Part shown: one piece after another, positions 35,444-53,200 of the stretch
Layout of the letters: each line of letters starts with the position of its first letter
How positions within the stretch are numbered: position 1 is the first letter of the stretch
NCBI GenBank assembly: GCA_039187815.1
Contig: JBCCZI010000003.1
Span: forward strand, 39,535 to 103,534
Reading direction: 5' to 3'
Source: Pseudomonadota bacterium
GTDB taxonomy: Bacteria; Pseudomonadota; Alphaproteobacteria; Rhodobacterales; Rhodobacteraceae
Length of the DNA stretch: 64,000 nt
Notes under the pieces: generated by a model
What the model saw: the letters and a program-made list of their open reading frames with translations, nothing else
The model's database searches: none
What the model was told of the DNA's origin: nothing
Made by a program: the position numbers and the translations under genes

Positions 35444-37894
35444 TTAGGCGCGCATGTGGGCACCATTGGCGTCATAGGCCGGCGCGCCCAGAACCTCGGC
35501 GCCGTAGCGCTCGCCCAGGATCTCGACCTCGAGGCGGGTGCCGGGTGTCGCCGAGGCCACCTGCACATAGCCCATCGCCATCGAGCGCCCGACCCGGTGG
35601 CCATAGCCGCCCGAGCTGACATAGCCGACCGCCTCGTCGCCAAGCAGAATCGCCTCGTCGCTGGCGACATCGATCCCGTCCACATCCAGCGTCATGGTCA
35701 CGAGCTTGCGGGCCGGGCCGGTGGCGCGCACGGTCTCGGTGGCCTCGCGACCGACGAAGTCCTTCTTCCAGTCGATGAAGGCGTCCATGCCGCTCTCGAC
35801 CGCGTCGAAATCCGGGCGGTATTCCAGCGTCCAGACGCCCCAGCCCTTCTCGAGCCGCATCGACATCAGCGCCCGGGCCCCGTACCAACGATATCCGAGA
35901 TCGGCGCCCGCCTCCTCGATGCTCTGGGCCAGGCGCAGCAGATACTGCGGACGGCAATAGATCTCGAAGCCGAGCTCGCCCGAGAAACTGATCCGGTTGA
36001 GCAGCGCGGGCACCCCGCCCACCGAGACCAGCCGGCAATCGCGGAAGCGCAGCGCCGTGCCCGACACATCCTCCCGCGTTATACGGGACAACAGCGCGCG
36101 CGACTGCGGCCCCGACAGCGCGATGCCGTGCCAATCGTCCGAGATGTTGGCATAGGCGACATCCTGGGGCCGGCTCTGCTCGAACCAGCGGCGATGCGCC
36201 TCTTGCATCGCGCCCGAGCCAATCAGCCAGAAGTGATCCTCGTCGAGACAGGCCACGGTCAGATCGCCGTAGAGCCGGCCCTTGGGCGTGAGCATTGGCG
36301 TGAGGGTCAGCCGCCCCGGCCCTGGCACCCGGCCCGCCAACAGGCGGTCGAGCCAGGCGCGCGCGCCCGCACCGCGGATCTCGTGCTTGCCGAAATTGGC
36401 GATCTCGATGCCGCCGACCGCCTCCTGCACCGTCTTCACCTCGCGCGCCACATAGGCATGCGAGCGGCTGCGCTCGAAGCTCGGATCCTCCCAGGCATCC
36501 GCCGGGCCGTCCCCGAACCACAGCGCGTTCTCGAGCCCGAAGCCCTGGTCCATGCGCGCGCCCTTGGCCACCAGGCGGTCATAGAGCGCGGTGGTCTTTT
36601 GGAGCCGGCCCTTGGGCAGCGTCTCATTAGGGAAGGTCATGACGAAGCGCCGCTCATAGTTCTCGGTCGACTTCACGGTGCCCCAATCGGGCGTCGCCCA
36701 GTCGCCAAAGCGCGCGACATCCATGGCCCAGACATCGATCGAGGGCTCGCCATGGATCATCCACTCGGCCATGGTGAGGCCAACGCCGCCGCCCTGGCAG
36801 AAGCCCGCCATCACACCCACTGCGACCCAATAGTTCGTCATGCCCGGCATCGGCCCGATCATCGGGTTGCCGTCGGGGCCGAAGGTGAAGGGGCCGTTGA
36901 TCACGTCCTTGATGCCGGCCTCGCCGATGGCGGGGATACGCTCAAAGCTCATCTCGAGCCGGTCGGCGATGCGGTCGAGATCGGGCGGCAACAGCTCGTG
37001 CCCGAAATCCCAGGGCGTGCCGGCGACCTTCCAGGGCGTGCCCTTGGGCTCATAGGTGCCGAGCAGCATGCCCTCGCGCTCTTGGCGGAAATAGATATTG
37101 GCCTCGTAATCGATGCCCGAGGGCAGCCGGGTCGGGTGGGTCGCCACGGCATCGATCCGGTCGGTCAGCAGATAGTGGTGCTCCATGGGCTGCACCGGCA
37201 GGGCGAGGCCCGCCATCTGACCCACCTCGCGCGCCCAGAGCCCGCCGCAGTTGACCACGATCTCGGCGTTCAGCGTACCCGTGGGCGTGGTGACGTCCCA
37301 CGAGCCGTCCGCGCGCTGCGTCGTCGCGGTCACCGGCGTGTGGGTGAAGTACTGCCCGCCATGCACCCGCGCCGATTTGGCAAAGGCATAAGTGGCGCCG
37401 GAGGGATCGAGATCTCCGTCCTGGTCGTCCCAAAGCGCGGCCAGATAGTGCTTGGGGTCGATCAGCGGATGGCGTTCGGCCACCTCCTTGGGGCTGATGA
37501 ACTCCTGGTGCAGGCCCATATAGCGGGCCTTAGAGCGCTCGCGTTTGAGATAGTCGTACCAGGTCTTGTTCGACGCGAGATAAAAACCGCCGGTGATGTG
37601 CAACCCCACCGAATGGCCCGAGGTCTCCTCGATCTCGCGGTAGAGGTCGATCGTGTAGCTCTGCAGCCGGCTGATGTTCGGATCCGAGCTGATCGTGTGG
37701 ATCTGCCCCGCCGCGTGCCAGGACGAGCCCGAGGTCAGTTCGTTGCGTTCCAGCAGCACCACGTCTTTCCAGCCGAACTTGGCCAGGTGGAACAGGATCG
37801 AGCAGCCCACCACGCCGCCGCCGATGATCGCGACCTTGGCATGGCTCGGCAGGGCTTTGGCGGGCGCGGGCTCGTCGGTCTGGATCTCGGGCAT
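35444..37894 (-). CDS. GcvT-family FAD-dependent oxidoreductase (dimethylglycine/sarcosine dehydrogenase-like)
   Basis: IIGGGVVG, SGSSWHAAG, PMEHHY, INGPFTFGPDG, C-terminal GcvT domain (RISFSGELGFEI, EKGW). Confidence 0.9.
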   Translation of the reverse strand: MPEIQTDEPAPAKALPSHAKVAIIGGGVVGCSILFHLAKFGWKDVVLLERNELTSGSSWHAAGQIHTISSDPNISRLQSYTIDLYREIEETSGHSVGLHITGGFYLASNKTWYDYLKRERSKARYMGLHQEFISPKEVAERHPLIDPKHYLAALWDDQDGDLDPSGATYAFAKSARVHGGQYFTHTPVTATTQRADGSWDVTTPTGTLNAEIVVNCGGLWAREVGQMAGLALPVQPMEHHYLLTDRIDAVATHPTRLPSGIDYEANIYFRQEREGMLLGTYEPKGTPWKVAGTPWDFGHELLPPDLDRIADRLEMSFERIPAIGEAGIKDVINGPFTFGPDGNPMIGPMPGMTNYWVAVGVMAGFCQGGGVGLTMAEWMIHGEPSIDVWAMDVARFGDWATPDWGTVKSTENYERRFVMTFPNETLPKGRLQKTTALYDRLVAKGARMDQGFGLENALWFGDGPADAWEDPSFERSRSHAYVAREVKTVQEAVGGIEIANFGKHEIRGAGARAWLDRLLAGRVPGPGRLTLTPMLTPKGRLYGDLTVACLDEDHFWLIGSGAMQEAHRRWFEQSRPQDVAYANISDDWHGIALSGPQSRALLSRITREDVSGTALRFRDCRLVSVGGVPALLNRISFSGELGFEIYCRPQYLLRLAQSIEEAGADLGYRWYGARALMSMRLEKGWGVWTLEYRPDFDAVESGMDAFIDWKKDFVGREATETVRATGPARKLVTMTLDVDGIDVASDEAILLGDEAVGYVSSGGYGHRVGRSMAMGYVQVASATPGTRLEVEILGERYGAEVLGAPAYDANGAHMRA

Positions 37895-38051
37895 GCGGCT
37901 CTCCATGGGCGATCTGCCCGACAGCTTAGCCATGGCCGCGCGGGGGGTGACTGCAAAAAACCTGACCTCTTGTCGCCCGAAGGCGACCTGCGGCCCCTTG
38001 CGCCCGGCTGCCGTGCGCGCAACCATTGGCCGGTCGACCGAGGAGGCAGAC

Positions 38052-38627
38052 ATGACGGACCGGCTGAGTGCGATGCTGGCGGCGATTGACGCGGCGAACG
38101 CCCTGGACCCGACGCTGGAGCGCGATGGCGCGGCCGAGCAGCCGGCCGCCCTGCTCTATGGCCAGCGGATGAGCGCCGAGCTCGACCGCCTCGCCCCCAA
38201 CGCGCCCGAGCTGTTGCGCATCGCCGCCCGCGGCCAGCACATCGAGCGCTGGAAGATGCCGCGCACCGCGTATCCCGAGGGGCGCGCGGGCTATCTCGAC
38301 TGGCGCCGCGCCCAGGCGGTCTTCCATGGCGAGCGGGTGGGCGGGCTGATGGCCGAGGCCGGCTATGCCCCCGAGGACGGCGCCCGCGTCGGCGCCATGC
38401 TGCGCAAAGAGGGCATCAAGCGCGATCCGGAGGTGCAACTGCTCGAGGACGTCATCTGCTTTGTCTTCGTGCGCTGGTATCTCGGCGCCTTTGCCGCCAA
38501 GCATGCCGAAGAGGACGTGGTCCGCATCGTCGGCAAAACCGCACGCAAGATGTCCGGGGAGGCACGCCGGCGTATGCTGGCGGAGTTCGACCTTGCCCCC
38601 GTGATGGCTGCCGCGATCCGCCCCTGA
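38052..38627 (+). CDS. DUF4202-family protein
   Basis: AIDAANALDP, YGQRMS, AARGQHIERW, GYLDWR, QLLEDVICFVF, KMS. Confidence 0.85.
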   Translation: MTDRLSAMLAAIDAANALDPTLERDGAAEQPAALLYGQRMSAELDRLAPNAPELLRIAARGQHIERWKMPRTAYPEGRAGYLDWRRAQAVFHGERVGGLMAEAGYAPEDGARVGAMLRKEGIKRDPEVQLLEDVICFVFVRWYLGAFAAKHAEEDVVRIVGKTARKMSGEARRRMLAEFDLAPVMAAAIRP

Positions 38628-38726: not shown

Positions 38727-41180
38727 ATGGCATCGGACGTGATCAGCATTGGCATCGAGGGCATGCATTGCGCCGCCTGCTCTGGGCGGGCCGAGCGCGC
38801 GCTGGCCGATGTGCCAGGCGTTGCCCGCGCCTCGGTGAACTTGCTGACCCACCGGGCCGAGATCGAGTTGGCGGGCGCCACGGCGGATGCGGTGATCCAT
38901 GCGGTCGAGGCGGCGGGCTTCCAGGTGCCGACCGCCGAGGCGCAGATCGCCCTCACCGGACTGCAGTGTGCCGCGTGTGTCGCGCGGGTCGAGGCGCGGC
39001 TGCGGCGCATCCCAGGCATCGTCTCGGCCGAGGTCAATCTGGCCACGGAGCGGGCCCGGATCCAATGGACCGGTGCGCGACCCACGCGGTCGATCCTCGA
39101 GATGGCTCTGGGCGAAATCGGCTTTGGCCTCGGCGCCGATGTGGGCGAGGATCGGACACCAGCGACCGCTGAGCCGGACTGGCTCGGCCGCGATGTGTTA
39201 TTGGCCGCGGGGCTCAGCCTGCCCGTCGTGGCGCTCGAGATGGGTGGCCATCTGATCCCGGGCCTCGCGCTCTGGGTCGAGCAGAGCCTCGGGCAAACCA
39301 CCAACTGGCTGGTGCAAGGGGTGCTGACGAGCCTGGTCCTGCTCGGCCCGGGACGGCGGTTCTTCACGACCGGCGTGCCGGCGCTCTGGCGCGGGGCGCC
39401 GGACATGAACGCTCTGGTCGCGCTCGGCACGCTGGCCGCCTGGGGGTTCTCGACGGTGGTCCTGCTCACACCAGGGCTCCTGCCAGCCGCGGCCCGCGCG
39501 GTCTATTTCGAAGCGGCGGCGGTGATCGTGACGCTGATCCTGCTCGGGCGGTGGCTCGAGGCCCGCGCCCGCGCCCGAACAGGCGAGGCGGTGCGGCGCC
39601 TGATCGGCCTCGCGCCCAGCACCGCACGGGTGCTGCGCGGCGGCGCCGAGATCGAGACCCCGGTCAGCGCCCTGATCCCGGGCGACCAGGTCCGCGTGCG
39701 CCCGGGTGAACGCCTGCCCGTCGACGGCGTGCTGCTCGAGGGCCGCTCCTTCATCGACCAATCCATGCTCACCGGCGAGCCGCTGCCGCTGGAGGCTGCT
39801 CCGGGCCAGAGGCTGGTCGGCGGAACGGTGAACGGGGCGGGCGCGCTGACGCTGCGGGCGACCCGGGTGGGCGCAGACACCGTGCTCGCCCAGATCGTGC
39901 GGATGGTCGAGGCCGCCCAGGCCACCAAGCTGCCGATCCAGGCCGTCGTCGACCGGGTCACCGCCTGGTTCGTGCCCGCCGTGCTGGCCGTGGCCATGCT
40001 GACGGTGCTGACCTGGCTGGCGCTGGGACCGGCGCCGGCCGTGCCCGCCGCCCTGACCGCCGGTGTGGCGGTACTGATCATCGCCTGCCCCTGCGCCATG
40101 GGGCTGGCGACACCGACTTCGATCCTGGTCGGGACGGGGCGCGGGGCCGAGCTCGGCGTGCTGTTCCGCGGCGGCGATGCGCTGCAGGCGCTCGGCCAGG
40201 TCGACGTGGTGGCCTTTGACAAGACCGGCACGTTGACCGAGGGACGCCCGGTGCTCACCGATCTCGTGACGCTGGACGGCGTTGCGGAGAACGCCCTGCT
40301 GACCGCCATCGCCGCGGTCGAGGCCCGCTCGGAGCATCCGATCGCCCGCGCTGTGGTGGCCGAGGCCGTGCGGCGCGGCCTGGAGTGGCCTGAGGCGGAG
40401 GCGGTCGAGAGCCTGCCCGGCATCGGGGTTCGCGGTCGGGCCGCGGGGCGCCGGGTTCTGGTCGGATCGGCGCGGCTGCTCGAGCGTGAGGGGCTCACGG
40501 TCGATCCGGCCTTGGCCGCGCGCTTTGGAGCCGCCGGCAAGACCCCGCTCTTTGCGGCCATCGACGGGACGGCGGTGGGTGCCATTGCGGTCGCCGATCC
40601 AGTCCGGCCCGAAACCGCCACCGCCCTCGCCGAACTCCGCGCTCTTGGGGTCGAAATCGCCATGATCTCGGGCGACACCCAGGCGACAGCCGCTGCGATC
40701 GGCGCCGAGCTCGGCATCGACCGGGTGGTCGCCGAGGTGCTCCCCGCCGGCAAGGTGGCCGCGCTCGCATCGTTGCGCGAGGGCGGCCGGCGCGTGGCTT
40801 TTGTCGGCGACGGCATCAACGACGCCCCAGCCCTGGCAGCGGCGGATGTGGGCATCGCCGTTGGCACGGGCACCGACATCGCCATCGACAGTGCCGATGT
40901 GGTGCTGATGTCCGGCGCACCCACAGGGGTTGCGCGCGCCATCGCCCTCAGCCGCGCCACCATGGGCAACATCCGGCAGAACCTGGCCTGGGCCTTTGGC
41001 TACAACACCGCTCTGATCCCGGTGGCCGCCGGAGCGCTAGCGCCCTTTGGCGGGCCGATGCTCTCGCCGATGCTGGCGGCGGCGGCCATGGCGCTCTCGA
41101 GCGTCTTTGTGGTCGGCAACGCGCTCCGGCTGCGCCGTTTCGCACCAGCGCCGCGGCGCGTGGCAGGGAGGCAGCCATGA
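38727..41180 (+). CDS. copA: Cu(I)-translocating P1B-type ATPase
   Basis: Two HMA domains (GMHCAAC, GLQCAAC), TGEP, CPC, DKTGT, SEHP, GDGIND, YN, MALSS. Confidence 0.95.
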
Positions 41181-41572
41181 ACATCGGCGAGGTGGCGGAG
41201 CGCTGCGGCCTGCCCGCCAAGACGATCCGGTACTATGAGGATATCGGCCTGGTGCGCCCGGCGCGGAGCGAGAACGGTTATCGCAGCTTTGCCGAGCGCG
41301 ATGTGCACAAGCTAACCTTCCTGTCGCGCGCGCGCTCGTTGGGGTTCAGCATCGAGGACTGCCGGGCGCTGCTCGAGCTCTACGAGGACCGCTCGCGCGC
41401 CAGTGCGGATGTCAAGCGCGTGGCCGAGCAGCATCTCGCACGCATCCAGGCCAAGATCGCCGAGCTCGAAGCGATGCAGGGCACGCTGGCTGATCTGGTG
41501 ACCCGCTGCCACGGGGACGACCGGCCCGATTGCCCGATCCTGGAGGGGCTGGCGCGCCAGCGCGAGGCCTAG
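41177..41572 (+). CDS. cueR: Cu(I)-responsive MerR regulator
   Basis: [30 protein letters not shown]. Confidence 0.95.
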
Positions 41573-42102
41573 TCGGGCGCGGGCTCGCCCCGCCAAAAGG
41601 CCCCGGCCCCCGGATGCACTGTCAGCGCTCCGGGTCCGGGCGCCTCGGCCATGCCGGCATGGGAGAGCGCATCGACCACCTGCCACGCATGCGCGGGCGG
41701 CAGATCCGGCACCGCGACCAGCCCATACTCTCCGCCGAGCGCCGCGAGCCGGACGAGCGGCACCGGCGGATCGGCCTCGAATGGCGCGACCGCCCAGACC
41801 ATGGCTTGCGCCTCGGCCGCCGAGAGCACCGCCACCAGCAATTGGCCCGTGCCCATCAGCGCCGCAATGCGCCGCGGGTGGGGGCCGCGGGCGACCCGCG
41901 CCCGGGCGGCCGGCAGTTCCCGCTCCAAGGCCGCAACCACCGCCTTGGCCAGGGTGTAGGTCTGCGGATCTCCCCGGTGCGCCCCGATCAACAGGTGCTT
42001 TTGGCGATAGACGACCCACTGGCCATAGGGCGTGTGCGCCGGAGCCGTCCCGGCAAGGCCCGCGGATGCGAGCCCCGCCAGAACCGCGCGTCTAGTCGGC
42101 AT
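41569..42102 (-). CDS. Tat-exported hypothetical protein
   Basis: MPTRRAVLAG twin-arginine signal ending APA-H; TPYGQWVVYRQKHLLIG; overlaps the upstream amidase stop by 11 nt. Confidence 0.7.
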   Translation of the reverse strand: MPTRRAVLAGLASAGLAGTAPAHTPYGQWVVYRQKHLLIGAHRGDPQTYTLAKAVVAALERELPAARARVARGPHPRRIAALMGTGQLLVAVLSAAEAQAMVWAVAPFEADPPVPLVRLAALGGEYGLVAVPDLPPAHAWQVVDALSHAGMAEAPGPGALTVHPGAGAFWRGEPAPD

Positions 42103-43351
42103 CGTCGACGAATACGTCCTTGTTCAGCACCGCGGTGACCACATAATTCGGCACGTCGACCACTTGGCCGATGCGCAGATCGACGGCCACGCTCGCCAGG
42201 ATATAGGCCTGCTCGCGCGTCAGCCCGTGCACCCGCTGGATGTGGTCGATCATCGCCCGCAAGGCATGCCGCGCCGCCAGGGTCAGATCCTCGGAGAGGT
42301 TCGAGAGCCCCGCGATCGGCGCGCTGTCGAGATAGCTGTGATAGATCGGCACCTCGCCCGCATCCTTGAGCGGATAGCCAATCGTCTGGTGGAAGCTCGA
42401 GGGCTCCATGTTCTTGATCTGCGCCCCGCCCTCGACCTGCGGGCTGGTGATGGCGCTGCCGAGGCCCTTGCGGATCTCGGTGGTCACCGTGACCACGGCG
42501 CCGGTCTCGATGGCGGTGCCCGAGACCTCGCCATCGCCCTGGGCATAGTGCACATCGCCGATGAACAGCCCGCAGCCATCGACAAAGCAGGGGATCAGCA
42601 GCGTTGTGCCGACCTGCATCTGCTGGACGTCCATGTTGCCGCCGTTCTCGCGCGGCGGCACCGTGCGCAGACAGGTGTCGGCATGGCTGCCGTCCTTGCC
42701 GCAGACCGCGGCGGGAAGGGCGCCCGTGGGCTCGGGCGGCAGGGCGATGCCGCCGACCGCCGCCAGCTCCGCCTCCCGCGCGAGCCAGGCGGCCACCTCC
42801 GGCTCGCCCGGCATGGTGCCGATGGCGCCGGTGAAGGCCTCGTAGGGCACCGCGATCCCCGGCATGGCATCCGAGCGCGCATGGGTGCGGTCGAGCTTCC
42901 AGCCGACGAAATAGGGCTCGGTGAACTCGTCGCGCAAAAAGCCGAAGCCCGGGACGATCACTGTATAGCCGAACTCGTCCGGCGCGATGTCGACGATGGT
43001 GATGGCCAGCACATCGCCGCGCTCGGCACCCTCGATCGAGACCGGCCCCTGCATCGGGTGCACGCCCGAGAGATCGAGCGCGGCCACATCATCGGCGTTC
43101 GAATCGAGCGTGAGGTCGCTGTCGAGCGCGTCGCGCGTGTGGAACACGATGTAGTCCCCCGGGCTCGCCGCCGCGACCGAGGGGATCTCCGGGTGATAGC
43201 GGTTGAAGCAATTGGGATCATCGGCACAAAACGCGCCCTGCTTGTCGATCACGATCCGGGTCTGCCAGGTGACGTCGGTGGTGTCGGCCATCGCGCCGGC
43301 GGCCAGGCTGATCAGCCCGGCGGCGGCGGTGGCACAGCGCAGGTGTCGCAT
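42092..43351 (-). CDS. Acetamidase/formamidase-family protein with Sec signal peptide
   Basis: Signal ending AMA-D; NRYHP, GDVLAITI, PPRENGGNMD, FIGDVHYAQGDGEVSGTAIE, AY.L.S. Confidence 0.85.
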   Translation of the reverse strand: MRHLRCATAAAGLISLAAGAMADTTDVTWQTRIVIDKQGAFCADDPNCFNRYHPEIPSVAAASPGDYIVFHTRDALDSDLTLDSNADDVAALDLSGVHPMQGPVSIEGAERGDVLAITIVDIAPDEFGYTVIVPGFGFLRDEFTEPYFVGWKLDRTHARSDAMPGIAVPYEAFTGAIGTMPGEPEVAAWLAREAELAAVGGIALPPEPTGALPAAVCGKDGSHADTCLRTVPPRENGGNMDVQQMQVGTTLLIPCFVDGCGLFIGDVHYAQGDGEVSGTAIETGAVVTVTTEIRKGLGSAITSPQVEGGAQIKNMEPSSFHQTIGYPLKDAGEVPIYHSYLDSAPIAGLSNLSEDLTLAARHALRAMIDHIQRVHGLTREQAYILASVAVDLRIGQVVDVPNYVVTAVLNKDVFVDDAD

Positions 43352-43469
43352 GGGCGGCCTCCTCTGTTGCGAATTGCATCATCCGCCAGGCACGCGCGCC
43401 AAGGCAAGCGCTTCCTCGCGCAGTGGCCATACCCGAACCAGGGGGACCGGTCCGGGTATGGCCCTGACC

Positions 43470-43790
43470 TCAGTGTGAGATCATCCAGGGCCGGCTGCCT
43501 GGCGTGCTCTTTGTGCCGTTCGCCGCGACGCGGGTCTTGCCGCGGCGGATCCGGCCACCGCTCTCGAACCCATGGGTGCGGGTCGATTTCGGCTCGTGCG
43601 CCGCCCGCTCATTGGTTTCGTGCGCATGGCGGACCCGGCTGTCGAGCACGCCCAGCCGCGGCATCGACAGCAGGACCCGGGCCGAGGCCGTCCCGCACAC
43701 AGGGCACGGGCACGGATCGGCATAGGCGGTCATCGGCTGGATCGCCTCGAACGCGCCATGGGTCTCGCAGATATACTCATAGACCGGCAT
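43470..43790 (-). CDS. fmdB: FmdB-family zinc-ribbon protein
   Basis: MPVYEYIC..HG.FE..CPCPVCG. Confidence 0.85.
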   Translation of the reverse strand: MPVYEYICETHGAFEAIQPMTAYADPCPCPVCGTASARVLLSMPRLGVLDSRVRHAHETNERAAHEPKSTRTHGFESGGRIRRGKTRVAANGTKSTPGSRPWMISH

Positions 43791-43793
43791 GGC

Positions 43794-45053
43794 TCAGAGA
43801 TCCGGCGAGACCGGCACCGTCACCGATCCGTCGACGAATTTCGTCGGCCCGTCGGGGTTCGGCAGCAGGTCGTATTCAAAGATATCCGTCGGCAGCCACA
43901 GCGTCGCACAGGCATTGGGATAGTCGACGATGCCCGAGACATGGCCTTGCACCGGAGCCGTGCCGAGGATTGCCAGCCCCTGCTCGCGCGAGTAGCCGAA
44001 TTTGGTCATGTACTCGATCGCGTTCAGGCAGGCCTGGCGATAGGCTTCGGTCATGTCGACATAGTGCTGCTTGCCGGCATCATCGACCGAGATGCCCTCG
44101 AAGATGATGTAGTCGTCGTACTTCGGCGTGGTCACCGAGGGTTTGAACATCGGGTTCTTGACGCCGTATTTGGCGATGCCGTCTTTGATCAGGCTGACCT
44201 TGACGTGCAGCCAGCTGGCCATCTCGATGCCGCCGCAGAAGGTGATCTCGCCGTCGCCCTGGCTGAAATGCGTGTCGCCCATCGAGAGACCGCCGCCCGG
44301 CACATAGACCGGGAAGTAGCAAACCGAGCCACGCGACAAATCCTTGATGTCGCAGTTGCCGCCGTTCTCGCGCGGAGGCAGCGTGCGGGCGGCCTCGGCC
44401 GCGGCGGCATCGCGCGCCTCGCCGGTCATCTTGCCCATATGCGCGGCCTGGGTGTTCGGCAGCTCGGCCAGTGCGGGCACGCGGGTCGGGTTGGTGTCGA
44501 ACAGCGCCTTTTCACGCGTGTTCCAGGCGTCCAGCATCTTGCGGTCGGGCAGACAGCCGATCAGGCCCGGGTGGATCAGCCCGGCAAAGCGCACCCCCGG
44601 CACATGGCGCGAGGTCGTGAACATGCCCTTGAAGTCCCAGATCGTTTTCTGCGCCTCGGGGAACTGCTCCTGCAGGAAGCCGCCGCCGTTGTTCTTGGAG
44701 AACACGCCGTTGAAGCCCCAGAGGCTGCGGTTGAGCGGGCCCACATCCAAAAGCTCTACGACCATGAGATCGCCCGGCTCCGCGCCCTTCACGCCGATCG
44801 GACCCGAGAGGTAGTGCACCTGCGGCAGCTCCACATCGCGCACATCAGAGGCGTCGTCGTTGTTGGCGATCTGGCTGCCGGTCCAGTCGTAGGCCTCGAC
44901 CACGAAATCATCGCCCGGCTCGACCCAGGTCACAATCGGGATATCCGGATGCCAGCGGTTGTGGATCATCGGGTTGTTGTGGGGGCTGTCCTCCAGATCG
45001 ACAGAGATCAGCGTGTTGGACGGCGTCGTATAGTGTGGTGCGGTATCGGGCAT
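43794..45053 (-). CDS. fmdA: Formamidase (FmdA/AmdA family)
   Basis: HNRWHPDIP, HYLSGPIGV, IHPGLIGCLP, PPRENGGNCDIKDL, GDTHFSQGDGEITFCGGIEM. Confidence 0.92.
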   Translation of the reverse strand: MPDTAPHYTTPSNTLISVDLEDSPHNNPMIHNRWHPDIPIVTWVEPGDDFVVEAYDWTGSQIANNDDASDVRDVELPQVHYLSGPIGVKGAEPGDLMVVELLDVGPLNRSLWGFNGVFSKNNGGGFLQEQFPEAQKTIWDFKGMFTTSRHVPGVRFAGLIHPGLIGCLPDRKMLDAWNTREKALFDTNPTRVPALAELPNTQAAHMGKMTGEARDAAAAEAARTLPPRENGGNCDIKDLSRGSVCYFPVYVPGGGLSMGDTHFSQGDGEITFCGGIEMASWLHVKVSLIKDGIAKYGVKNPMFKPSVTTPKYDDYIIFEGISVDDAGKQHYVDMTEAYRQACLNAIEYMTKFGYSREQGLAILGTAPVQGHVSGIVDYPNACATLWLPTDIFEYDLLPNPDGPTKFVDGSVTVPVSPDL

Positions 45054-45079
45054 AAGTGCCTCCTCTGCTGGTTTTTTGG

Positions 45080-45769
45080 TTAGACGGACAGGAATTTGGT
45101 GACGCGGGCCTCGTCGATGCCGTCCCGCGGGCTCTCGAAGACAAAGCTGCCGTTCTCGATCACCACCACCCGGTCGGCGACGTCGAGGGCAAAGCTGAGG
45201 ACCTGTTCCGAGACCACGATCGAGAGGCCCCGGTCGTCGCGGATGCGCTTCAGCGTGCGGGCCATCTCGCGGATGATCGAGGGCTGGATGCCCTCGGTCG
45301 GCTCGTCGAGCAGCAGCACCTTGGGCTGGGCCGCCAAGGCGCGGGCGATCGCCAGCTGCTGCTGCTGCCCGCCCGAGAGATTGCCGCCCCGGCGATGCTT
45401 CATCTCGAGCAGCACGGGGAAGAGCTCATAGATCTCGCCCGGCACCTCGCGCTCGCCGGTGACGGTGAGGCCGGTCTCGACATTCTCCTCGACGGTCATG
45501 GTCGAGAAGATGCCGCGGCCCTGGGGCACATAGGCGATGCCCGAGGCCACCCGGCTGTGGCTCTTCATGCGGGTGATCTCGGTCTCGCCGATGCGGACCT
45601 GGCCCTCACGCGAGGGGATCACCCCCATCAGCGATTTCATCAGCGTGGTCTTGCCCATGCCGTTGCGGCCCATGATGGCGACGATCTCGCCCGGGGCGAC
45701 GCTGAGATCGAGCCCGTGCAGGATCTCGGACTGGCCATAGGCGACGCGGAGTTGGCTCACGTTCAGCAT
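45080..45769 (-). CDS. urtE: Urea/amide ABC ATPase UrtE
   Basis: GRNGMGKTT, YVPQGR, LSGGQQQQLAIAR, LDEPTEGIQPS. Confidence 0.92.
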   Translation of the reverse strand: MLNVSQLRVAYGQSEILHGLDLSVAPGEIVAIMGRNGMGKTTLMKSLMGVIPSREGQVRIGETEITRMKSHSRVASGIAYVPQGRGIFSTMTVEENVETGLTVTGEREVPGEIYELFPVLLEMKHRRGGNLSGGQQQQLAIARALAAQPKVLLLDEPTEGIQPSIIREMARTLKRIRDDRGLSIVVSEQVLSFALDVADRVVVIENGSFVFESPRDGIDEARVTKFLSV

Positions 45770-45776
45770 GGGATCC

Positions 45777-46535
45777 TCAATGTCCGAGATAGACTTCGAC
45801 CACCTTGGGGTCGGCCTGGACCTTGGCCATCGAGCCCTGGGCCAGGATCTTGCCCTGGTGCAGCACGATGACCTTGTGGGCGATGTCCTCGACGAACTTC
45901 ATGTCGTGCTCGATGACCAGCACGCTTCGGTTCTTGATGATGCGGTTGAGCAGCTCGGCGGTCTTTTTGCGCTCGGCGACCGACATGCCAGCCACGGGTT
46001 CGTCCAGCATCAAAAGCTCGGGGTCCTGGATCAGCAGCATGCCGATCTCGAGCCATTGCTTCTGTCCGTGGCTCAGCACCGCGGCCTTGGTGCCGAGCAT
46101 ATCGGCCAGGAAGATCGTCTCGGCGATCTCCTCGATGCGCGCGACCACCTCGACCGAGCGCTTGAACGCCAGGCTGCCGAACACCGAATAGCCGGTGGGG
46201 TAGCTCAGCTCGAGGTTCTCAAAGACCGTCAGATCCTCGTAGATCGAGGGGTTCTGGAACTTTCGTCCGATGCCCGCATGGACAATCTGGTCCTCGCGCA
46301 TCGACAGGATCTCGCGATCCTTGAACTTGACCGAGCCGTTGGTGGACTTGGTCCGCCCGCAGATCAGGTCGAGCACGGTGGTCTTGCCGGCCCCATTGGG
46401 GCCGATGATGACCATGATCTCGTCCTTGTCGACATAGAAGGACAGATCATCCACCGCCTTGAAGCCGTCGAAGGACACGGTCAGTCCTTCGACCGCGAGC
46501 AGATAGTCGGTGTGGGTCATGGCTTTGGCGTTCAT
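45777..46535 (-). CDS. urtD: Urea/amide ABC ATPase UrtD
   Basis: GPNGAGKTT, GRKFQNP, LSHGQKQWLEIGM, LDEPVAGM; start may be 46544. Confidence 0.92.
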   Translation of the reverse strand: MNAKAMTHTDYLLAVEGLTVSFDGFKAVDDLSFYVDKDEIMVIIGPNGAGKTTVLDLICGRTKSTNGSVKFKDREILSMREDQIVHAGIGRKFQNPSIYEDLTVFENLELSYPTGYSVFGSLAFKRSVEVVARIEEIAETIFLADMLGTKAAVLSHGQKQWLEIGMLLIQDPELLMLDEPVAGMSVAERKKTAELLNRIIKNRSVLVIEHDMKFVEDIAHKVIVLHQGKILAQGSMAKVQADPKVVEVYLGH

Positions 46536-46540
46536 GGCCC

Positions 46541-47686
46541 TCACTCCGCTGGGGCGCCGGCAGGCAGGCCGACCCCGGCCTCGCGCCCACGCTGGCGGTT
46601 CAGAAGATTGACGATCGGCCGCTTGACCCAGTCGTCATAGATCCCGGCCAACCCGTTCGGGAACACCAGCACCACGGCGATGAAAAGCCCGCCGAGGCCG
46701 AGCAGCCAGAGCTCGGGGAAGCTTTCGGAGAATGTGGTCTTGGCCCAGTTCACCAACAGCGCGCCATAGACCGCGCCGAGGATCGAGTGCCGCCCGCCGA
46801 CCGCGCAGAAGATCACCATCTCGATCGAGGGCACGATGCCGATCAGCGTCGGCGACATGAACCCGACTTGGAGCGTGAACATCGCCCCGCCCACAGCCGC
46901 CATGGCCGCGCCGAGACAGAAGACAAAGACCTTGAACGAGGCGACGTCATAGCCCGAGAAGCGCACCCGCTCCTCCTGGTCGCGCATGGCGATCAGGACG
47001 CGGCCGAGCTTGGAGCGCCGCACATATTGCGCCAGGAACAGGCAGCCGAACAGCAGCACCCCGTTGACGAAATAGAGCGTGGTCTTCGCCTCGTCGGTGC
47101 GGATGTCCCAGCCGAGCAGCGTGCGCAGATCGGTCATCCCGTTGATGCCGCCGGTATAGCCCTGCTGCCCGATGATCAGGATCGTCAGCACCGACACCAA
47201 CGCCTGGGTGATGATGGCAAAGTAGACCCCGCCCACACGCCGCCGGAACATCGCGTAGCCGACGACAAAGGCCAGCGCCGAGGGCACGATCAGCACCGCC
47301 AGCAGCGCCAGCGGCAGGTAGTTGAACGGCTCCCACCACCACGGCAGCGCCGTGAGCTGGTTCCAGTCCATGAAGTCCGGGATGCCCGGGGTCGACTGGA
47401 TCGAGGTGTTCTCGGGCGTCGAGGCCTCGAGCTTCAGGAACATCGCCATGCAATAGCCGCCGAGCCCGAAGAAGATCCCCTGGCCGAGCGAGAGGATCCC
47501 GCCCGCGCCCCAGCAGAGCACGAGCCCCACCGCGACGAAGGCATAGGTCAGGTACTTGCCGAACAGGTTCAGCCGGAAGCTGTCCAGCCCCATCGGCAGG
47601 GCAACAAAGATGATGCCGGCCAGGATGGCGAAACCGATCATCTCGGCCGGCGTCAGGAATGGGTTTTTCGAGTGGGTCAACTGCAT
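46541..47686 (-). CDS. urtC: Urea/amide ABC permease UrtC
   Basis: GILSLGQGIFFGLGGY, STPGIPDFMDWN, GVYFAIITQA, PSIEMVI. Confidence 0.92.
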   Translation of the reverse strand: MQLTHSKNPFLTPAEMIGFAILAGIIFVALPMGLDSFRLNLFGKYLTYAFVAVGLVLCWGAGGILSLGQGIFFGLGGYCMAMFLKLEASTPENTSIQSTPGIPDFMDWNQLTALPWWWEPFNYLPLALLAVLIVPSALAFVVGYAMFRRRVGGVYFAIITQALVSVLTILIIGQQGYTGGINGMTDLRTLLGWDIRTDEAKTTLYFVNGVLLFGCLFLAQYVRRSKLGRVLIAMRDQEERVRFSGYDVASFKVFVFCLGAAMAAVGGAMFTLQVGFMSPTLIGIVPSIEMVIFCAVGGRHSILGAVYGALLVNWAKTTFSESFPELWLLGLGGLFIAVVLVFPNGLAGIYDDWVKRPIVNLLNRQRGREAGVGLPAGAPAE

Positions 47687-47696
47687 CTCTCAGGCC

Positions 47697-48623
47697 TCAC
47701 TTGCGAACCTTGAAGGCGAACAGGCCCTGGGGACGGAGCATCAGGATGCCGATCACGCTCAGCAGCACGAAGACCTTGGCCATCGAGCCTGAGAGGAAGA
47801 ACTCGAGGATCGATTGGGACTGGGAGATCGTGAACGCCGAAGCGATGGTGCCGAGCAGACTGGTCGCGCCGCCGAAGACCACCACGAGGAAGGTGTCGAC
47901 GATATAGAGCTGGCCCGCCGTCGGTCCGGTCGAGCCGATCATGGTAAAGGCCGAGCCCGCAACGCCCGCAACCCCGCAGCCGATGCCAAAGGTCAGGCGA
48001 TCCGTCCACTCGGTGTTGATGCCTACGGCGCCCGCCATCTGGCGGTTCGAGACCACAGCCCGCACCTGCTTGCCCCAGGTCGAGCGGAACAGCATCACAT
48101 AGACCGCAACAAAGATCGTGACCGCCAGGATCATCACAAAGAGCCCGTTGATCGGGATCTCGATGAGATCGGTGATGGGGATCGACCCCAACATCCAATC
48201 GGGCACCGAGACTCCGACCTCACGCGCTCCGAAGGTCGAACGATAGATCTGCTGCAGGATCAGCGAGAGACCCCAGGTGGCCAAGAGCGTATCGAGCGGA
48301 CGTTTGTAGAGATGGCGTATCAACCCCCACTCCACCGCCATGCCGAGCGCTCCCGACGTGATGAACGCGAGGATCATCGCCACGAAGAAATACCCGCCAT
48401 AGAGGGCGGGCATGTAGCCTTCGAACACGATCGAGCAGAGATAGGTGACATAGGCGCCGAGGATCATGAACTCCCCATGCGCCATGTTGATCACGCCCAT
48501 CTGGCCAAAGATGATCGCCAGGCCCAGCGCCATCAGGACGAATACCGAAAACAGGATCAGGCCGGCGAAGCCCTGCATCGCCGCAATCGCGCCGAGCTCG
48601 CCCCAGGTGTAGCCGTCGAACAT
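47697..48623 (-). CDS. urtB: Urea/amide ABC permease UrtB
   Basis: GLAIIFGQMGVINMAHGEF, RPLDTLLATWG, VDTFLVVVFGG. Confidence 0.92.
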   Translation of the reverse strand: MFDGYTWGELGAIAAMQGFAGLILFSVFVLMALGLAIIFGQMGVINMAHGEFMILGAYVTYLCSIVFEGYMPALYGGYFFVAMILAFITSGALGMAVEWGLIRHLYKRPLDTLLATWGLSLILQQIYRSTFGAREVGVSVPDWMLGSIPITDLIEIPINGLFVMILAVTIFVAVYVMLFRSTWGKQVRAVVSNRQMAGAVGINTEWTDRLTFGIGCGVAGVAGSAFTMIGSTGPTAGQLYIVDTFLVVVFGGATSLLGTIASAFTISQSQSILEFFLSGSMAKVFVLLSVIGILMLRPQGLFAFKVRK

Positions 48624-48644
48624 GCAAGAGCCCCGTCGCTCGAG

Positions 48645-48682
48645 AAAAAGGGGCCGGCCCGCGCGCCCAGACGCGGGCCGGC
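48645..48682 (-). terminator. Intrinsic terminator/stabilising hairpin between urtA and urtB
   Basis: 11-bp stem GCCGGCCCGCG/CGCGGGCCGGC followed by CCCTTTTT on the minus strand. Confidence 0.7.
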
Positions 48683-48690
48683 AGGCGCGC

Positions 48691-49995
48691 TTATTGGTAG
48701 CCTTTGGGGAAGGGATCGGGCTCCACGAGCTCGGTGGTCTCGAACACCACTTCGTACTGGCCGTCGTCCTTGGCGCGACCCACGCGGGTCTTGGACCACA
48801 GGTGATGGTTCTCGTGCACCTTCACATAGCCCTCGGGCGCGCTGGTGAACTCGATGCCGGGGCTGGCCGCGCGGACCTTGTCCACATCGAACGAGCCGGC
48901 CTTCTCCACCGCCATCTTCCACAGCCACGGGCCGAGATAGGCGGCCTGGGTCACGTCGCCGATCACCATGTCGTCGCCCCACATCTCCTTGAAGGCTTGG
49001 ACAAAGGCCTGGTTGTTCTCGTTCTCGAGGCTCTGGAAGTACTTCATGCAGGCATAGGCGCCGACGATGTTCTCGCCGCCGATGCCGCGGATCTCGTCCT
49101 CGGTCACCGAGATGGTGAGCAGCAGCGGCTTCTCGTCGGTCATGTCGATCCCGGCGGCCTTCAGCTGCTTGTAGAAGGCGACGTTGGAGCCTCCGACGAC
49201 GATCGCATAGATCACGTCCGGCTTGCGCAGGCGGATCTTGTTGATCACCGAGTTGAACTGCGTGTGGCCGAGCGGATAGTACTCCTCGCCCACGACCTTG
49301 CAGCCTTCCATGAAGTTCTCGATGTGCTTGCGCGCGATCTTGTTCGAGGTGCGCGGCCAGATGTAGTCCGAGCCGAGCAGGTAGAAGGTCTTGGCGCCCT
49401 TGGTCTGGTTCACCCAGTCGAGGCCGGCGATGATCTGCTGGGTCGCCTCTTGGCCTGTGTAGATCACGTTGGGCGACTGCTCGAGACCCTCATAGAAGGT
49501 CGGGTAGTAGAGAAAGCCGTTGTACTGCTCAAAGACCGGCAGCACGGCCTTGCGCGAGGCGCTGGTCCAGCAGCCCATGACGCTGGCCACTTTGTCGTTC
49601 TGCAGCAGTTTGCGCGATTTCTCGGCAAAGGTCGGCCAATCCGAGGCGCCGTCTTCCTGGATGTACTCGATCTTGCGCCCCAGCACGCCGCCCATGGCGT
49701 TGATCTGGTCGATCGCCAGCTTCTCGGCCTGCACCGAGCCGGTCTCCGAGATCGCCATTGTGCCGGTGATCGAGTGCAGGATGCCGATGGTCACCGTGTC
49801 GTCGGTGACCGCGAGCCCGGTGGTGTTCACCTCGGCGGTCGGGAAGTCGGCGGCGCGGGCGCCCGACGGGCGGAACAGCGCCGGCGTCATGGCCGCGGCC
49901 GTCATGCCCATCAGCACGCCGCGGCGGCTGGGGCGCGAGAACTGGGCCGGCAGGCGCGGGCCGCTGCGCTTGGGGTCGTCGGTGTGATCGGTCAT
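48691..49995 (-). CDS. urtA: Urea/amide ABC substrate-binding protein UrtA
   Basis: Tat-like SRRGVL; GILHSITGTMAISE, DGASDWPTFA, GCWTSASRKAVLP, YPTFYEGLE, ENHHL. Confidence 0.93.
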   Translation of the reverse strand: MTDHTDDPKRSGPRLPAQFSRPSRRGVLMGMTAAAMTPALFRPSGARAADFPTAEVNTTGLAVTDDTVTIGILHSITGTMAISETGSVQAEKLAIDQINAMGGVLGRKIEYIQEDGASDWPTFAEKSRKLLQNDKVASVMGCWTSASRKAVLPVFEQYNGFLYYPTFYEGLEQSPNVIYTGQEATQQIIAGLDWVNQTKGAKTFYLLGSDYIWPRTSNKIARKHIENFMEGCKVVGEEYYPLGHTQFNSVINKIRLRKPDVIYAIVVGGSNVAFYKQLKAAGIDMTDEKPLLLTISVTEDEIRGIGGENIVGAYACMKYFQSLENENNQAFVQAFKEMWGDDMVIGDVTQAAYLGPWLWKMAVEKAGSFDVDKVRAASPGIEFTSAPEGYVKVHENHHLWSKTRVGRAKDDGQYEVVFETTELVEPDPFPKGYQ

Positions 49996-50098
49996 CTCGG
50001 GTCCTCCAGATGTGGCATAGTGCCCTAGCGTCGTCTTGCCGCATTGCCTTGTCGGCCGGCATCTCACGCCACCATCCAGAACCTGCCCATCCAGCGGA

Positions 50099-50116
50099 AT
50101 ACGCAGAATTGCGTAT
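50099..50116. promoter_or_regulatory. Inverted repeat in the divergent urtA/kinase intergenic region
   Basis: ATACGCA-gaat-TGCGTAT. Confidence 0.45.
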
Positions 50117-50251
50117 CGCCCTGCGCATTTCATTCCTGCACTATCCTGATGTGAGGCCCGATGCACAGCGGGTGACCTGGGGAGGTGGTCCGGAGCGAGG
50201 CACGAGGAGATCGGCGAGCATGGCTCGGCCGAGACGAGGAGGCTACGCGCC

Positions 50252-53200
50252 GTGCGCGACACCGGACCGTTGTTGACCCACCCTGCGCGCCCGCAGACCT
50301 CGCGGCGCACCTACAACCAATGGGTGGCGAACGAAACGCTCGAGGATTTCGCGCTGCGCTTCACCTCGCGCCGCGCCCGGCGCTGGTCGGCAGGCCGGGT
50401 CGCCAACACGGCGCTCGGCTCAATCTCGTTCCTTGCGCTCGAGGCGATCGGCGGGGCGATCACCCTCTCCTACGGCTTTGACAACGCGGTCTGGGCGATC
50501 CTGGTGGTCGGGCTGATCCTGTTCCTAACGGGCCTGCCGATCAGCTATTACGCGGCCAAGGCCGGGGTGGACATCGACCTGCTGACCCGCGGCGCGGGCT
50601 TTGGCTATATTGGCTCGACGGTCACCTCGCTGATCTATGCGTCCTTCACCTTCATCTTCTTTGCGCTCGAGGCGGCGATCCTGTCGCTCGCGCTGCAGTT
50701 CTGTTTCGGCATCCCGCTCGAGATCGGCTATCTGCTGAACGCGTTGATCGTGATCCCGCTGGCCAGCCACGGCTTCACCCGCATCGGCGCCTTTCAGCAA
50801 TGGACGCAACCGGTCTGGATCGGGCTGCAATTGTTGCCGTTTCTGTTCCTGCTGTGGTCGGGGAGCGAGCTCACCCCCTGGCTCGAGCATGAGGGGCGGC
50901 TGGCCGAGGCGGGGCTCGATCTGCTGCCCTTTGCGCTGGCGGCGGCGGTGATCTTCTCGCTCTCGGCCCAGATCGGCGAGCAGGTGGATTTCCTGCGCTT
51001 TTTGCCCGAGCCCACCACCCCGCGTGAGCGGCTGCACTGGTGGGCCGCCCTGATCGCCGCGGGGCCCGGCTGGGCGGTGCTCGGCACGCTCAAGATGCTT
51101 GCGGGCTCGTTCCTGGCGGTGCTGGCGCTCGAGGCCGGGGTGATCGCCCAACACGCCGTCGAGCCCACGCAGATGTATTTCACCGCCTTCTCCAGCGCCC
51201 TGCCCTGGGAAGGGCTGGCCATCGCCGTCACCGGCATCTTCGTGATCGTCTGCCAGCTCAAGATCAACGTGACCAACGCCTATGCGGGCTCGATCGCCTG
51301 GTCGAACTTCTTTTCGCGCCTGACGCACAGCCATCCGGGTCGCGTCGTCTGGCTCTGCTTCAACGTGCTGATCGCGCTGATGCTGATGGAGTTCGGGGTG
51401 TTCGGCGCGCTCGAGAACACGCTCGGGCTCTATGCCCATGTGGCGGTGGCCTGGGTCGGCGCCCTGGTGGCGGATCTGGTGATCAACAAGCCGCTCGGGT
51501 TCAGCCCCGCACATATCGAGTTCCGCCGCGGCTATCTCTACGACATCAACCCGGTGGGCGCAGGCGCCATGGGGCTGTCGGTCATCGTCTCGCTGGCCTG
51601 CTATCTCGGCGTCTTTGGGCCGCTGGCCGAGGCGATGTCGTGCTTTGTGGCGCTCGGCACCTCGCTGGTGGCCGCGCCGCTGATCGCTTGGGCGACGGGC
51701 GGGCGCTATTACCTGGCGCGCGAGCCGGCCAAGGTCGAGGGCAAGGCGCCCTGCAATCTCTGCGGCCACCGCTTCGATATCGAGGACATGGTCTGCTGTC
51801 CCTTCCATGGCGGCGAGATCTGCTCGCTCTGCTGCACGCTCGATGCCCATTGCACCGATCGCTGCAAGCCGACAGACGGCGCCATGACCCGCCTTGCCGC
51901 CTGGCTGCGGGCGCGCTGGCCCGGCCGCTCGCGCTGGTTGGGGCCGGGGCAGACCAGCCTCTTCATCGGCATCTTCGCGGGCTTTCTGGCGATCATCGGC
52001 GCGGGGCTGTTGCTGATCCACCAGCAGTTGATCCTGACCGATCCGGATGGGGCCGCGATCCTCGAGCGCGGTTTTCTGATGGCCTTCTTCATGCTCTCGC
52101 TGGTGGTCGGCATCGCCACTTGGCTGCATGTGCTGGCGGTTGAGAGCCGGGTGCGCGCACTGCAGGAGGCCGAGCACCAGACCACCCGCCTGGTCGACGA
52201 GATCGCCGCCCACCAGCGCACCGATGCCGCCCTGCAAAAGGCCAAGGAGGACGCTGAAGCCGCCAACGAGGCCAAGAGCCGTTATGTGGTCGGCCTCAGC
52301 CACGAGCTGCGCACCCCGCTGAACGCCATCCTCGGCTATGCCCAGCTGATGGAGGGCGATCCGACCATCCCCGCACACCGCCAGACGGGCATCGGGGTCA
52401 TCCGCCGCTCGGCCGAGCATCTGGGCGGGCTGATCGAGGGCCTGCTCGATATCAGCCGCATCGAGGCGGGCCGGCTCGAGGTCTACCGCGACCTCATCCG
52501 CTTCCCAGACTGTCTCGACCACATCGCCGCGATCTTCCGCATGCAGGCGGCCGAGAAGGGGCTGAGCTTCGAGACCGATTTCGCCCCCGGGCTGCCCCAG
52601 GCGGTGCACGGAGACGAAAAGCGCCTCCGCCAGATCCTGATGAACCTGCTCTCGAACGCGGTGCGCTATACCGACCACGGGGCCGTGCGCTTTGCCGTGC
52701 GCTTCACCAGCGACATCGCGGTGATCGAGATCTCGGACACCGGCCGCGGCATCCCCGAGCCGAAGCGCGAGCTGATCTTCCGCCCCTTTGAGCGGATCGA
52801 GGACCCCACCGCGCCCGTGCCCGGCACCGGTCTCGGCCTCACGATCACCAAGCTGCTCTGCGACATGCTGGGGGGCGAGCTGAAGCTCGAAAGCGCCGTC
52901 GGCGTCGGCAGCACCTTCACTGTGCGCCTCCGCCTGCCACGCGCCCATGCGGACGAAAAGCTCGCCGCCCCGGGCAGCCGGCGCATCCGCGGCTATCTCG
53001 GCCGGCGCCGGCAGATCCTGGTGATCGACGACAATCCCGAGCACCGCAAGCTGGTGGCCGACATCCTCAGCCCGCTGGGCTTCGATCTCAGCTTTGCCGA
53101 AACGGCCGAGGTGGTCGAGGCGATGCTGCCGGATCTCACCCCCGATCTGATCCTGCTCGATGTCGCCATGCCCGGGACCGATGGCTGGACCCTGCTTCGG

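Follow-up and report, generated by a model that had tools for sequence, protein, structure and literature searches.

Why should an enzyme of the FmdA family be furnished with an export signal, and why should its gene run into that of a small twin-arginine protein, when those FmdA-type amidases that have been characterised work, to our knowledge, alone and in the cytoplasm? The question is posed by a stretch of 64,000 nucleotides, here called the window, from an alphaproteobacterium of the family Rhodobacteraceae (GenBank assembly GCA_039187815.1, contig JBCCZI010000003.1, positions 39,535 to 103,534 of the forward strand). On its minus strand, downstream of the cytoplasmic fmdA and fmdB, lie the gene of a second FmdA-family protein of 419 residues (FmdA2) and, directly behind it, that of a protein of 177 residues (Y177). 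A preliminary description of the window, made from its letters alone, had pointed out these two open reading frames (ORFs) and their 11-nt overlap, and had read them as a second, exported FmdA-family paralogue coupled tightly to a twin-arginine protein. The ORFs and the overlap are confirmed by direct reading of the sequence (Table 1), and the assignment is borne out by the signal features, the match to PF03069 and the overlap itself. Here we report that the two genes occur together almost without exception, and that the small protein has the predicted fold of one half of a TAXI-type binding protein. A conserved enzyme–partner system is well supported; the reading we favour, with a probability of roughly 55%, is that the two genes are a self-contained module, patchy in its distribution and probably mobile by horizontal transfer, and that their products make up a periplasmic amidohydrolase of two components.

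Co-occurrence and distribution of the two genes

That the small ORF is a genuine gene, as opposed to an artefact of high-GC DNA, is shown by a profile of its family, which recovers 379 clusters at 50% identity from 1.8 billion representatives, nearly all of them 160–210 amino acids (aa) in length, and by its predicted fold, which reaches a mean predicted local distance difference test (pLDDT) score of 89.8. Y177 itself has no Pfam match at E <= 0.1, PF16868 (NMT1_3) included, and no NCBIfam match. A profile of the small protein, applied to contigs of one genome per species, yielded the 80 related loci on which the survey of gene neighbourhoods is based. At all 77 loci with enough upstream DNA, an FmdA2 homologue of 64–86% identity is located immediately upstream of the partner gene on the same strand. 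The distance from enzyme stop to partner start, taken at 75 loci, has a median of −4 nt, the two genes overlapping at 63 loci and lying within 30 nt of each other at 72. In the window the ATG of Y177 (42102) falls 11 nt before the end of the FmdA2 TAG (42092), within the sequence ATGCCGACTAG.

The association is equally strict when it is approached from the enzyme. A match at E <= 1e-50 was present in 27 of 401 genomes sampled across the class; among those of at least 61% identity the partner gene lies right downstream in 14 out of 14, one further match being situated at a contig edge, and enzymes of 58% identity or less are without a partner. The preliminary description had staked its proposal on the two genes being found together elsewhere, and they are so found with near exceptionless regularity in both directions (77/77 and 14/14). 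Two enzyme homologues on long metagenome contigs are likewise followed by a gene for 179–189 aa that has no Pfam domain and matches the partner profile. The pairwise distances of enzyme and partner correlate (r = 0.78), which indicates that the two genes are inherited together, the partner diverging about twice as fast as the enzyme (mean distance 0.50 versus 0.24).

Nothing else is retained with comparable constancy. All-against-all clustering of the ORFs within 8 kb on either side of the 80 loci returned only the shadow ORFs of the pair, and no other family was present in more than 12 loci; the enzyme is the sole family kept beside the partner, and there is no TRAP membrane component among the conserved neighbours. 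The genes just downstream of the pair are mutually unrelated and include a GST, an EamA protein, a metallo-beta-lactamase fold and an alpha/beta hydrolase, amongst others. In four of the 80 loci a third gene, encoding a membrane protein of ~400 aa with DUF6702 and HupE_UreJ_2 domains, overlaps the 3' end of the pair. HupE_UreJ_2 membrane proteins are relatives of Ni/Co permeases, and the four loci belong to three Kiloniellaceae-like genomes and one metagenome-assembled genome (MAG) labelled Methylomirabilia; the window has no such gene. A sigma-54 promoter upstream of the enzyme gene was considered and rejected, the matches being loose, confined to 12 of 76 loci and scattered in position.

The module is found in only one of 301 sampled genomes of the window's own order, and was not found in two genomes of the same genus. 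It recurs in several alphaproteobacterial orders and in some Gammaproteobacteria, and in single MAGs labelled Methylomirabilia, Desulfobacterales and Anaerolineae. Overall, the clade is present in ~3–4% of the sampled alphaproteobacterial species, and its carriers are mostly marine or sediment MAGs, whose taxonomy labels are approximate. Cultured strains with the pair include Roseovarius sp. D22-M7, Roseobacter sinensis WL0113, Roseivivax lentus DSM 29430 and Pelagibius litoralis DSM 21314. This patchy distribution suggests that the module has probably spread laterally. As a separate observation on the labels, the locus from the Anaerolineae MAG (L025) is near-identical in layout and signal peptides to one from an alphaproteobacterial MAG (L022), for which reason the former is probably a binning error and not a cross-phylum occurrence.

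The enzyme and its partner

FmdA2 is a member of the FmdA_AmdA family (PF03069; E = 7.2e-88, 295.4 bits against a gathering cut-off of 27, profile positions 3–371 of 373). Its score against the formamidase equivalog NF045496 is 205.8 bits, below the curated cut-off of 500, the neighbouring true FmdA scoring 709; the two proteins are ~31% identical. Its nearest solved relative is the Delftia formamidase/(+)-gamma-lactamase 2WKN (4.8e-44). With the latter, with FmdA of Methylophilus methylotrophus and with the proteins of NF045496, FmdA2 shares the PF03069 domain, the ~410-aa size class, an identity of 31–32% and the family motifs. An alignment of 47 clade members and 10 cytoplasmic relatives contains 69 columns conserved in both groups, among them PPRENGGN-D and GD-H--QGDGE, which are also present in the solved family members in the PDB. 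On account of these columns and motifs FmdA2 is probably an active hydrolase. The known substrates of the family are formamide, acetamide, other short amides and lactams. A review relates the 2WKN enzyme and the FmdA family to a bi-zinc formamidase (PMC4602302).

In contrast to FmdA and 2WKN, FmdA2 carries a signal peptide, six clade-specific cysteines and an insertion of 17 residues at ~333–352, which is conserved and of low confidence in the AlphaFold2 (AF2) model (monomer; mean pLDDT 81.8). It also has an obligate partner gene of its own, whereas FmdA pairs with FmdB. The N-terminus, MRHLRCATAAAGLISLAAGAMA followed by DTTD, displays the n-region, h-region and AxA parts of a Sec signal, and in the homologues this region is hydrophobic, devoid of RR and variable in sequence, with an AxA-like end ahead of a conserved ADTT(D/E/N/S). 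The mature enzyme, predicted to begin at D23, would have a mass of ~42 kDa and an isoelectric point (pI) of 4.4, and the clade as a whole is acidic (median pI 4.5). The mature N-terminal arm is the most conserved segment of the enzyme and is of low confidence in the monomer model. The six cysteines form three close pairs (C42/C48, C217/C227 and C255/C260) that are present in 46–47 of the 47 clade members and entirely lacking in the cytoplasmic FmdA, a pattern of short spacing and restriction to the clade that fits disulfide staples made in the periplasm. Signal features and cysteine pattern together point to export via Sec.

Differences also extend to the probable surroundings of the active site. 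At three positions the clade replaces polar residues that are invariant in the long-form cytoplasmic relatives (H to F49, K to Q243 and S to F263), two of which adjoin catalytic motifs. This suggests that the substrate pocket is altered, and consequently the name 'formamidase' should not be passed on from FmdA to FmdA2. The preliminary description took FmdA-family enzymes to be cytoplasmic as a rule; this is true of those that have been characterised, but exported members are already on record: 3B9T (E = 6.2e-19) was deposited as a 'twin-arginine translocation pathway signal protein'. It differs from FmdA2 in being distant, in its length of 484 aa and in having the Tat (twin-arginine translocation) signal on the enzyme itself, and we know of no partner for it. 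Apart from the paired enzymes, one homologue of 58% identity (L102, 1435–2697, plus strand, G598:C3) has lost its signal and most of the cysteines; with a TAA in frame, it is perhaps a copy in decay.

The partner begins with MPTRRAVLAGLASAGLAGTAPA followed by HTPYGQW, and the signal (MPTRRAVLAG...APA, with predicted cleavage ahead of H) shows the RR motif, h-region and AxA-type site of a Tat substrate. Of 76 homologues 74 have the RR, which commonly takes the form NRRxFL or NRRxxL, and the signals always end in a small-x-small sequence (AxA, LGG or LSG) directly ahead of an invariant histidine; the mature protein should therefore start with HTPYGQW, the histidine being its predicted residue 1. 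These signal features argue for export of Y177 by Tat. Across 57 partner sequences H23, Q28 and W29 are invariant; the other invariant residues are R33, R69, R72, R78, T85, Q87 and H138, and H36, H42, R43, D45 and Y49 are nearly so. Conservation in the protein peaks over the first 20 mature residues (0.90 and 0.83), yet residues 21–30 have a pLDDT of only 54, such that the best-conserved arm is a low-confidence region of the model. The invariant residues, chiefly arginine and histidine, are mostly placed after beta-strands, and judging by the topology of binding proteins the side that they occupy would be the former cleft face.

The AF2 model of Y177, likewise a monomer, is confident from about residue 31. 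Structural alignment with VIA-align places four TAXI substrate-binding proteins at the top (4DDD, Z = 17.3; 8S4J, 16.4; 1US5, 16.3; 9IBP, 16.0), the next binding-protein families reaching Z <= 11.7, and the Foldseek list is also headed by TAXI entries. Comparison of the partner profile with PDB sequences gave chance-level matches only. The 140–143 aligned residues lie in both the N-terminal and the C-terminal segment of TAXI chains that are ~300 residues long, and a hairpin (strands 117–123 and 126–130) stands in place of TAXI lobe 2. As modelled, Y177 is lobe 1, the N-terminal lobe, of a TAXI-type protein, and this lobe only. The periplasmic-binding-like fold on which the preliminary description had speculated is thus present according to the structure comparison, albeit reduced to a single TAXI-type lobe. 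With the TAXI binding proteins of TRAP systems (NMT1_3; VcGluP 8S4J, TtGluBP 1US4/1US5, 4DDD and 9IBP) Y177 has the lobe 1 fold in common, and it keeps the C-terminal HPGA motif (H163, G165). In contrast to these proteins it comprises one lobe of ~155 mature residues instead of ~300, lacks both a Pfam match and a nearby TRAP membrane gene, and bears the additional invariant arm HTPYGQW.

Rare longer relatives of the partner do match NMT1_3 (P0385, 7.8e-40; P0361, 6.1e-08). P0385 (330 aa) has both lobes of a complete TAXI protein together with the same RR signal and a mature start GHTPYRQW-VYR; because a full-length protein carries this N-terminus, the half-protein probably arose from a P0385-like TAXI protein by loss of lobe 2. 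The metagenome scan revealed no close relatives of P0385, and a search of 401 genomes with it returned only ordinary TAXI proteins, without an HTPY-QW arm and without a nearby amidase.

The surroundings of the pair

Table 1. Features of the two-gene module, of its neighbourhood in the window, and of the third gene found in four loci of other genomes (coordinates of the latter refer to the respective locus)
Feature	Position	Strand	Basis or remark
fmdA2 gene, exported (predicted) FmdA_AmdA-family amidohydrolase (FmdA2, P0002, 419 aa)	42092..43351	-	PF03069, NF045496, AF2 model
Y177 gene, 177-aa twin-arginine protein (P0001), predicted single-lobe TAXI-type binding-protein derivative	41569..42102	-	AF2 model, structural alignment
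FmdA2 codons 1-22, predicted Sec-type signal peptide MRHLRCATAAAGLISLAAGAMA, cleavage before DTTDVTW	43286..43351	-	homologue N-termini
Shine-Dalgarno-like AGAGGAGG, 6 nt ahead of FmdA2 ATG	43358..43365	-	direct sequence reading
Y177 codons 1-22, putative twin-arginine signal MPTRRAVLAGLASAGLAGTAPA	42037..42102	-	RR and small-x-small in homologues
Y177 codons 23-29, HTPYGQW, predicted mature N-terminal arm	42016..42036	-	conservation, pLDDT
11-nt overlap ATGCCGACTAG, FmdA2 stop / Y177 start (translational coupling)	42092..42102	-	direct sequence reading
GC-rich 17-bp hairpin directly 3' of fmdB stop codon	43425..43465	-	minimum free energy, shuffling
fmdA (context only, outside module)	43794-45053	-	NF045496, 709 bits
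fmdB (context only, outside module)	43470-43790	-	RPWMISH/FmdB zinc ribbon
Urea/amide ABC transporter genes, upstream of fmdAB (context only)	45080-50310	-	transporter domains
DUF6702/HupE_UreJ_2 gene, locus L032	10344-11687	+	directly after partner gene
DUF6702/HupE_UreJ_2 gene, locus L036	7317-8522	+	directly after partner gene
DUF6702/HupE_UreJ_2 gene, locus L043	10344-11549	+	directly after partner gene
DUF6702/HupE_UreJ_2 gene, locus L078	10521-11789	+	directly after partner gene

The pair follows fmdB on the same strand at a distance of 118 nt. Folded as a 124-nt segment, the spacer between fmdB and FmdA2 has a minimum free energy of −67.2 kcal/mol (z = −4.2), and none of 200 shuffled sequences folds as well. 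Its hairpin is without a U-tract and was not called by the consensus terminator scan; it might end transcription, stabilise the RNA or be a repeated element of the REP-like kind. Consensus scanning for promoters and terminators gave nothing useful, and an Rfam scan of 41000–51000 detected no RNA family. The enzyme gene has its own ribosome-binding site (AGAGGAGG), and co-expression by read-through past the hairpin is possible. Beyond the window, fmdA, fmdB or urtA stands beside the pair in none of the 80 other loci. The tie to the cytoplasmic fmdA–fmdB and transporter operon that the preliminary description had implied finds no support in this comparison, in the intervening hairpin or in the rarity of the module within the order: functional dependence of the pair on fmdAB or on the transporter is not supported, and its placement beside fmdAB is incidental, local co-regulation being the most that it would reflect. 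In the two same-genus genomes, at ~70% nucleotide identity, fmdA, copA and cueR are located on different contigs and no insertion site can be read.

On the other side, the pair faces a convergent CueR/MerR-type regulator and copper-type P-type ATPase. The segment 38658–41572 (plus strand) encodes the copper ATPase, with two HMA domains, and then the MerR/CueR-type regulator, whose stop codon abuts that of Y177. A copper link through this convergent copA–cueR pair was set aside, since the adjacency is not kept in other loci and is probably coincidental.

The remaining observations concern the wider neighbourhood. The C-terminus of the FmdB-like protein reads ...RPWMISH, and the protein's score of 118.8 bits for NF053663 (RPWMISH domain) falls narrowly short of the cut-off of 120. 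The transporter consists of a binding protein (48691–50310) and of two permeases and two ATPases (45080–48623), all on the minus strand. For the UrtA-like binding protein the longest ORF is 539 aa; its true start is probably much further downstream and the long form an ORF-calling artefact of high-GC DNA, because the binding-protein domain begins only at residue 172. The transporter genes diverge from two overlapping plus-strand genes, one for a hybrid histidine kinase of 1121 aa (50252–53617), whose first ~670 residues hold no recognisable domain, the other for a LuxR-type response regulator (53614–54525); the kinase may serve the fmd/urt operon as its sensor. At 35444–38089 two ORFs of ~870 aa overlap on opposite strands, the one on the plus strand being without a Pfam match.

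Function of the pair

How might the two proteins work together? In the reading that we favour, FmdA2 would leave the cytoplasm unfolded through Sec, fold in the periplasm and there be stapled by three short-range disulfides, while the small protein would cross by Tat, the cleavage of its signal baring the invariant histidine at the new N-terminus. Enzyme and partner would be produced in coupled amounts. The Arg/His-rich former cleft face of the partner and its N-terminal arm would then dock on the acidic enzyme; once docked, the partner would either stabilise the enzyme or assist it in the capture or gating of a small amide, its substrate, with ammonium and an organic acid being released in the periplasm for uptake. 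The N-terminal arms of both proteins may order on binding, since they are conserved yet disordered in the monomer models. Among the hints of docking are the acidity of the enzyme, the preponderance of arginine and histidine among the invariant residues of the partner and the conservation of both mature arms, all of which is consistent with a direct association. A role of Y177 as a binding protein or cofactor carrier, as was originally put forward, is possible.

Several points weigh against this reading. One Sec-exported and one Tat-exported protein would fit an enzyme with its maturation factor just as well. The models are those of monomers, and it is from these and from the sequences that we infer the complex. 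There is no enzyme–partner fusion among the best 150 of the 379 profile matches, nor did a search limited to longer proteins return one, the latter being weak evidence; the lack of fusions counts against a complex because fusions would be the strongest possible evidence for it at the sequence level. One homologue (L103, 1165–2724, plus strand, G551:C19; 52% identity), predicted to be exported and in possession of the six cysteines, has no partner, and its genome, 93% complete, does not contain a partner match anywhere; the same enzyme is also devoid of the ADTT arm, which is in itself a further hint of docking. Lastly, the ligand-binding residues of TAXI proteins have not been kept. In VcGluP, Q93 is the key glutamate-binding residue and S75 also touches the ligand (PMC11574862); by transitive alignment Y177 has L93 in place of the former and the G73–P76 stretch in place of the latter, and with the loss of this Gln and Ser a classical TAXI ligand-binding role is not supported.

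A bolder form of the favoured reading would have the TAXI-remnant lobe dock on the exported amidase so as to create a hybrid 'flytrap' at the active site, the histidine arm reaching into the enzyme, where it would either stand in for the lost His49 or make a metal or catalytic site complete. We regard this as tentative, with the odds against it. Compensation of the His49 loss in trans by His23 of the partner was rejected as a proposal in its own right, His49 being invariant only in the long-form cytoplasmic relatives and not alignable in the short-form members of the family, and it is kept solely as part of this flytrap.

The main rival assigns Y177 a role in metal delivery or maturation: as a periplasmic metallochaperone, and not a lasting subunit, it would use its N-terminal histidine together with H138, H36 and H42 to load metal into an enzyme that arrives through Sec in an unfolded, metal-free form. 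N-terminal histidines serve as metal ligands in the histidine-brace copper proteins and in the Ni-hook of nickel superoxide dismutase (NiSOD), and H23 is the predicted first mature residue in all homologues, with H138 invariant as well. The kinship of the FmdA family to the bi-zinc formamidase (PMC4602302) is in keeping with this idea, as is the membrane gene related to Ni/Co permeases that follows the pair, though it does so in only four of 80 loci and not in the window. Y177 has neither a cysteine nor a His-rich tract, and its fold is not that of a known metallochaperone; the 4-nt overlaps suggest equal synthesis of the two proteins, which would be unusual for a helper; and the convergent copA–cueR neighbour is not conserved elsewhere. 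On balance we consider a metallochaperone unlikely, if less so than the two proposals that follow. One of these, that the pair is the periplasmic branch of the formamide/urea pathway of the adjacent fmdA–fmdB and urt-like genes, with Y177 as the binding protein that feeds it, draws on the short distance to fmdB on the same strand (118 bp), on conceivable read-through past the hairpin and on the position of FmdA2 in the long-form FmdA branch with 2WKN as best solved relative. We find it quite improbable in view of the absence of fmdA, fmdB and urtA from the other 80 loci, the single occurrence in the order and none found in the two same-genus genomes, the strong hairpin after fmdB, a score far under the formamidase equivalog cut-off and the substitutions at positions 49, 243 and 263 of residues invariant in the long-form cytoplasmic enzymes.

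Just as improbable, in our estimation, is that Y177 acts independently of FmdA2 as a degenerate solute receptor, for instance as a homodimer that recreates the two-lobe cleft and hands an acid or amide to a transporter or sensor encoded at a distance. The TAXI-derived fold and the invariant arginines, which could bind a carboxylate, are compatible with a receptor, and recruitment of a TAXI protein from outside the TRAP systems has a precedent in TAXI-GltS of Bordetella pertussis (BP0403), where translational coupling and joint action link it to a protein that is not a TRAP membrane component (PMC12344293). In that system, however, a complete, glutamate-binding TAXI protein is paired with a transporter, whereas FmdA2 is an enzyme and Y177 has but half of a TAXI domain. 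Against a receptor stand the lack of any conserved transporter or sensor gene in the vicinity, the loss of the key TAXI ligand residues, and the strictly kept juxtaposition and overlap of the two genes, which speak for a direct relationship between their products.

The two-component periplasmic amidohydrolase thus remains the reading we prefer. Its elements are not all without precedent, as exported FmdA-family proteins have been annotated (3B9T) and TAXI-GltS is a recent, single example of a TAXI protein with a non-TRAP partner (PMC12344293); a search of the literature on periplasmic or Tat-linked formamidases found no paper on the pair, on the partner family or on a single-lobe TAXI protein. 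The clade defined here is widespread, predicted to be exported and probably disulfide-stabilised, and is tied to a type of partner that is not known with enzymes. It points to turnover of small amides in the periplasm and thereby bears on nitrogen scavenging by marine bacteria. For annotation it follows that a 'hypothetical protein' of ~180 aa downstream of such 'formamidases' belongs to the system. A natural single-lobe binding protein is relevant to the evolution of two-lobe binding proteins and to the re-use of their lobes and, should the flytrap reading be true, the pair would represent a new architecture of periplasmic hydrolases, in which half a binding protein is functional only with a foreign partner.

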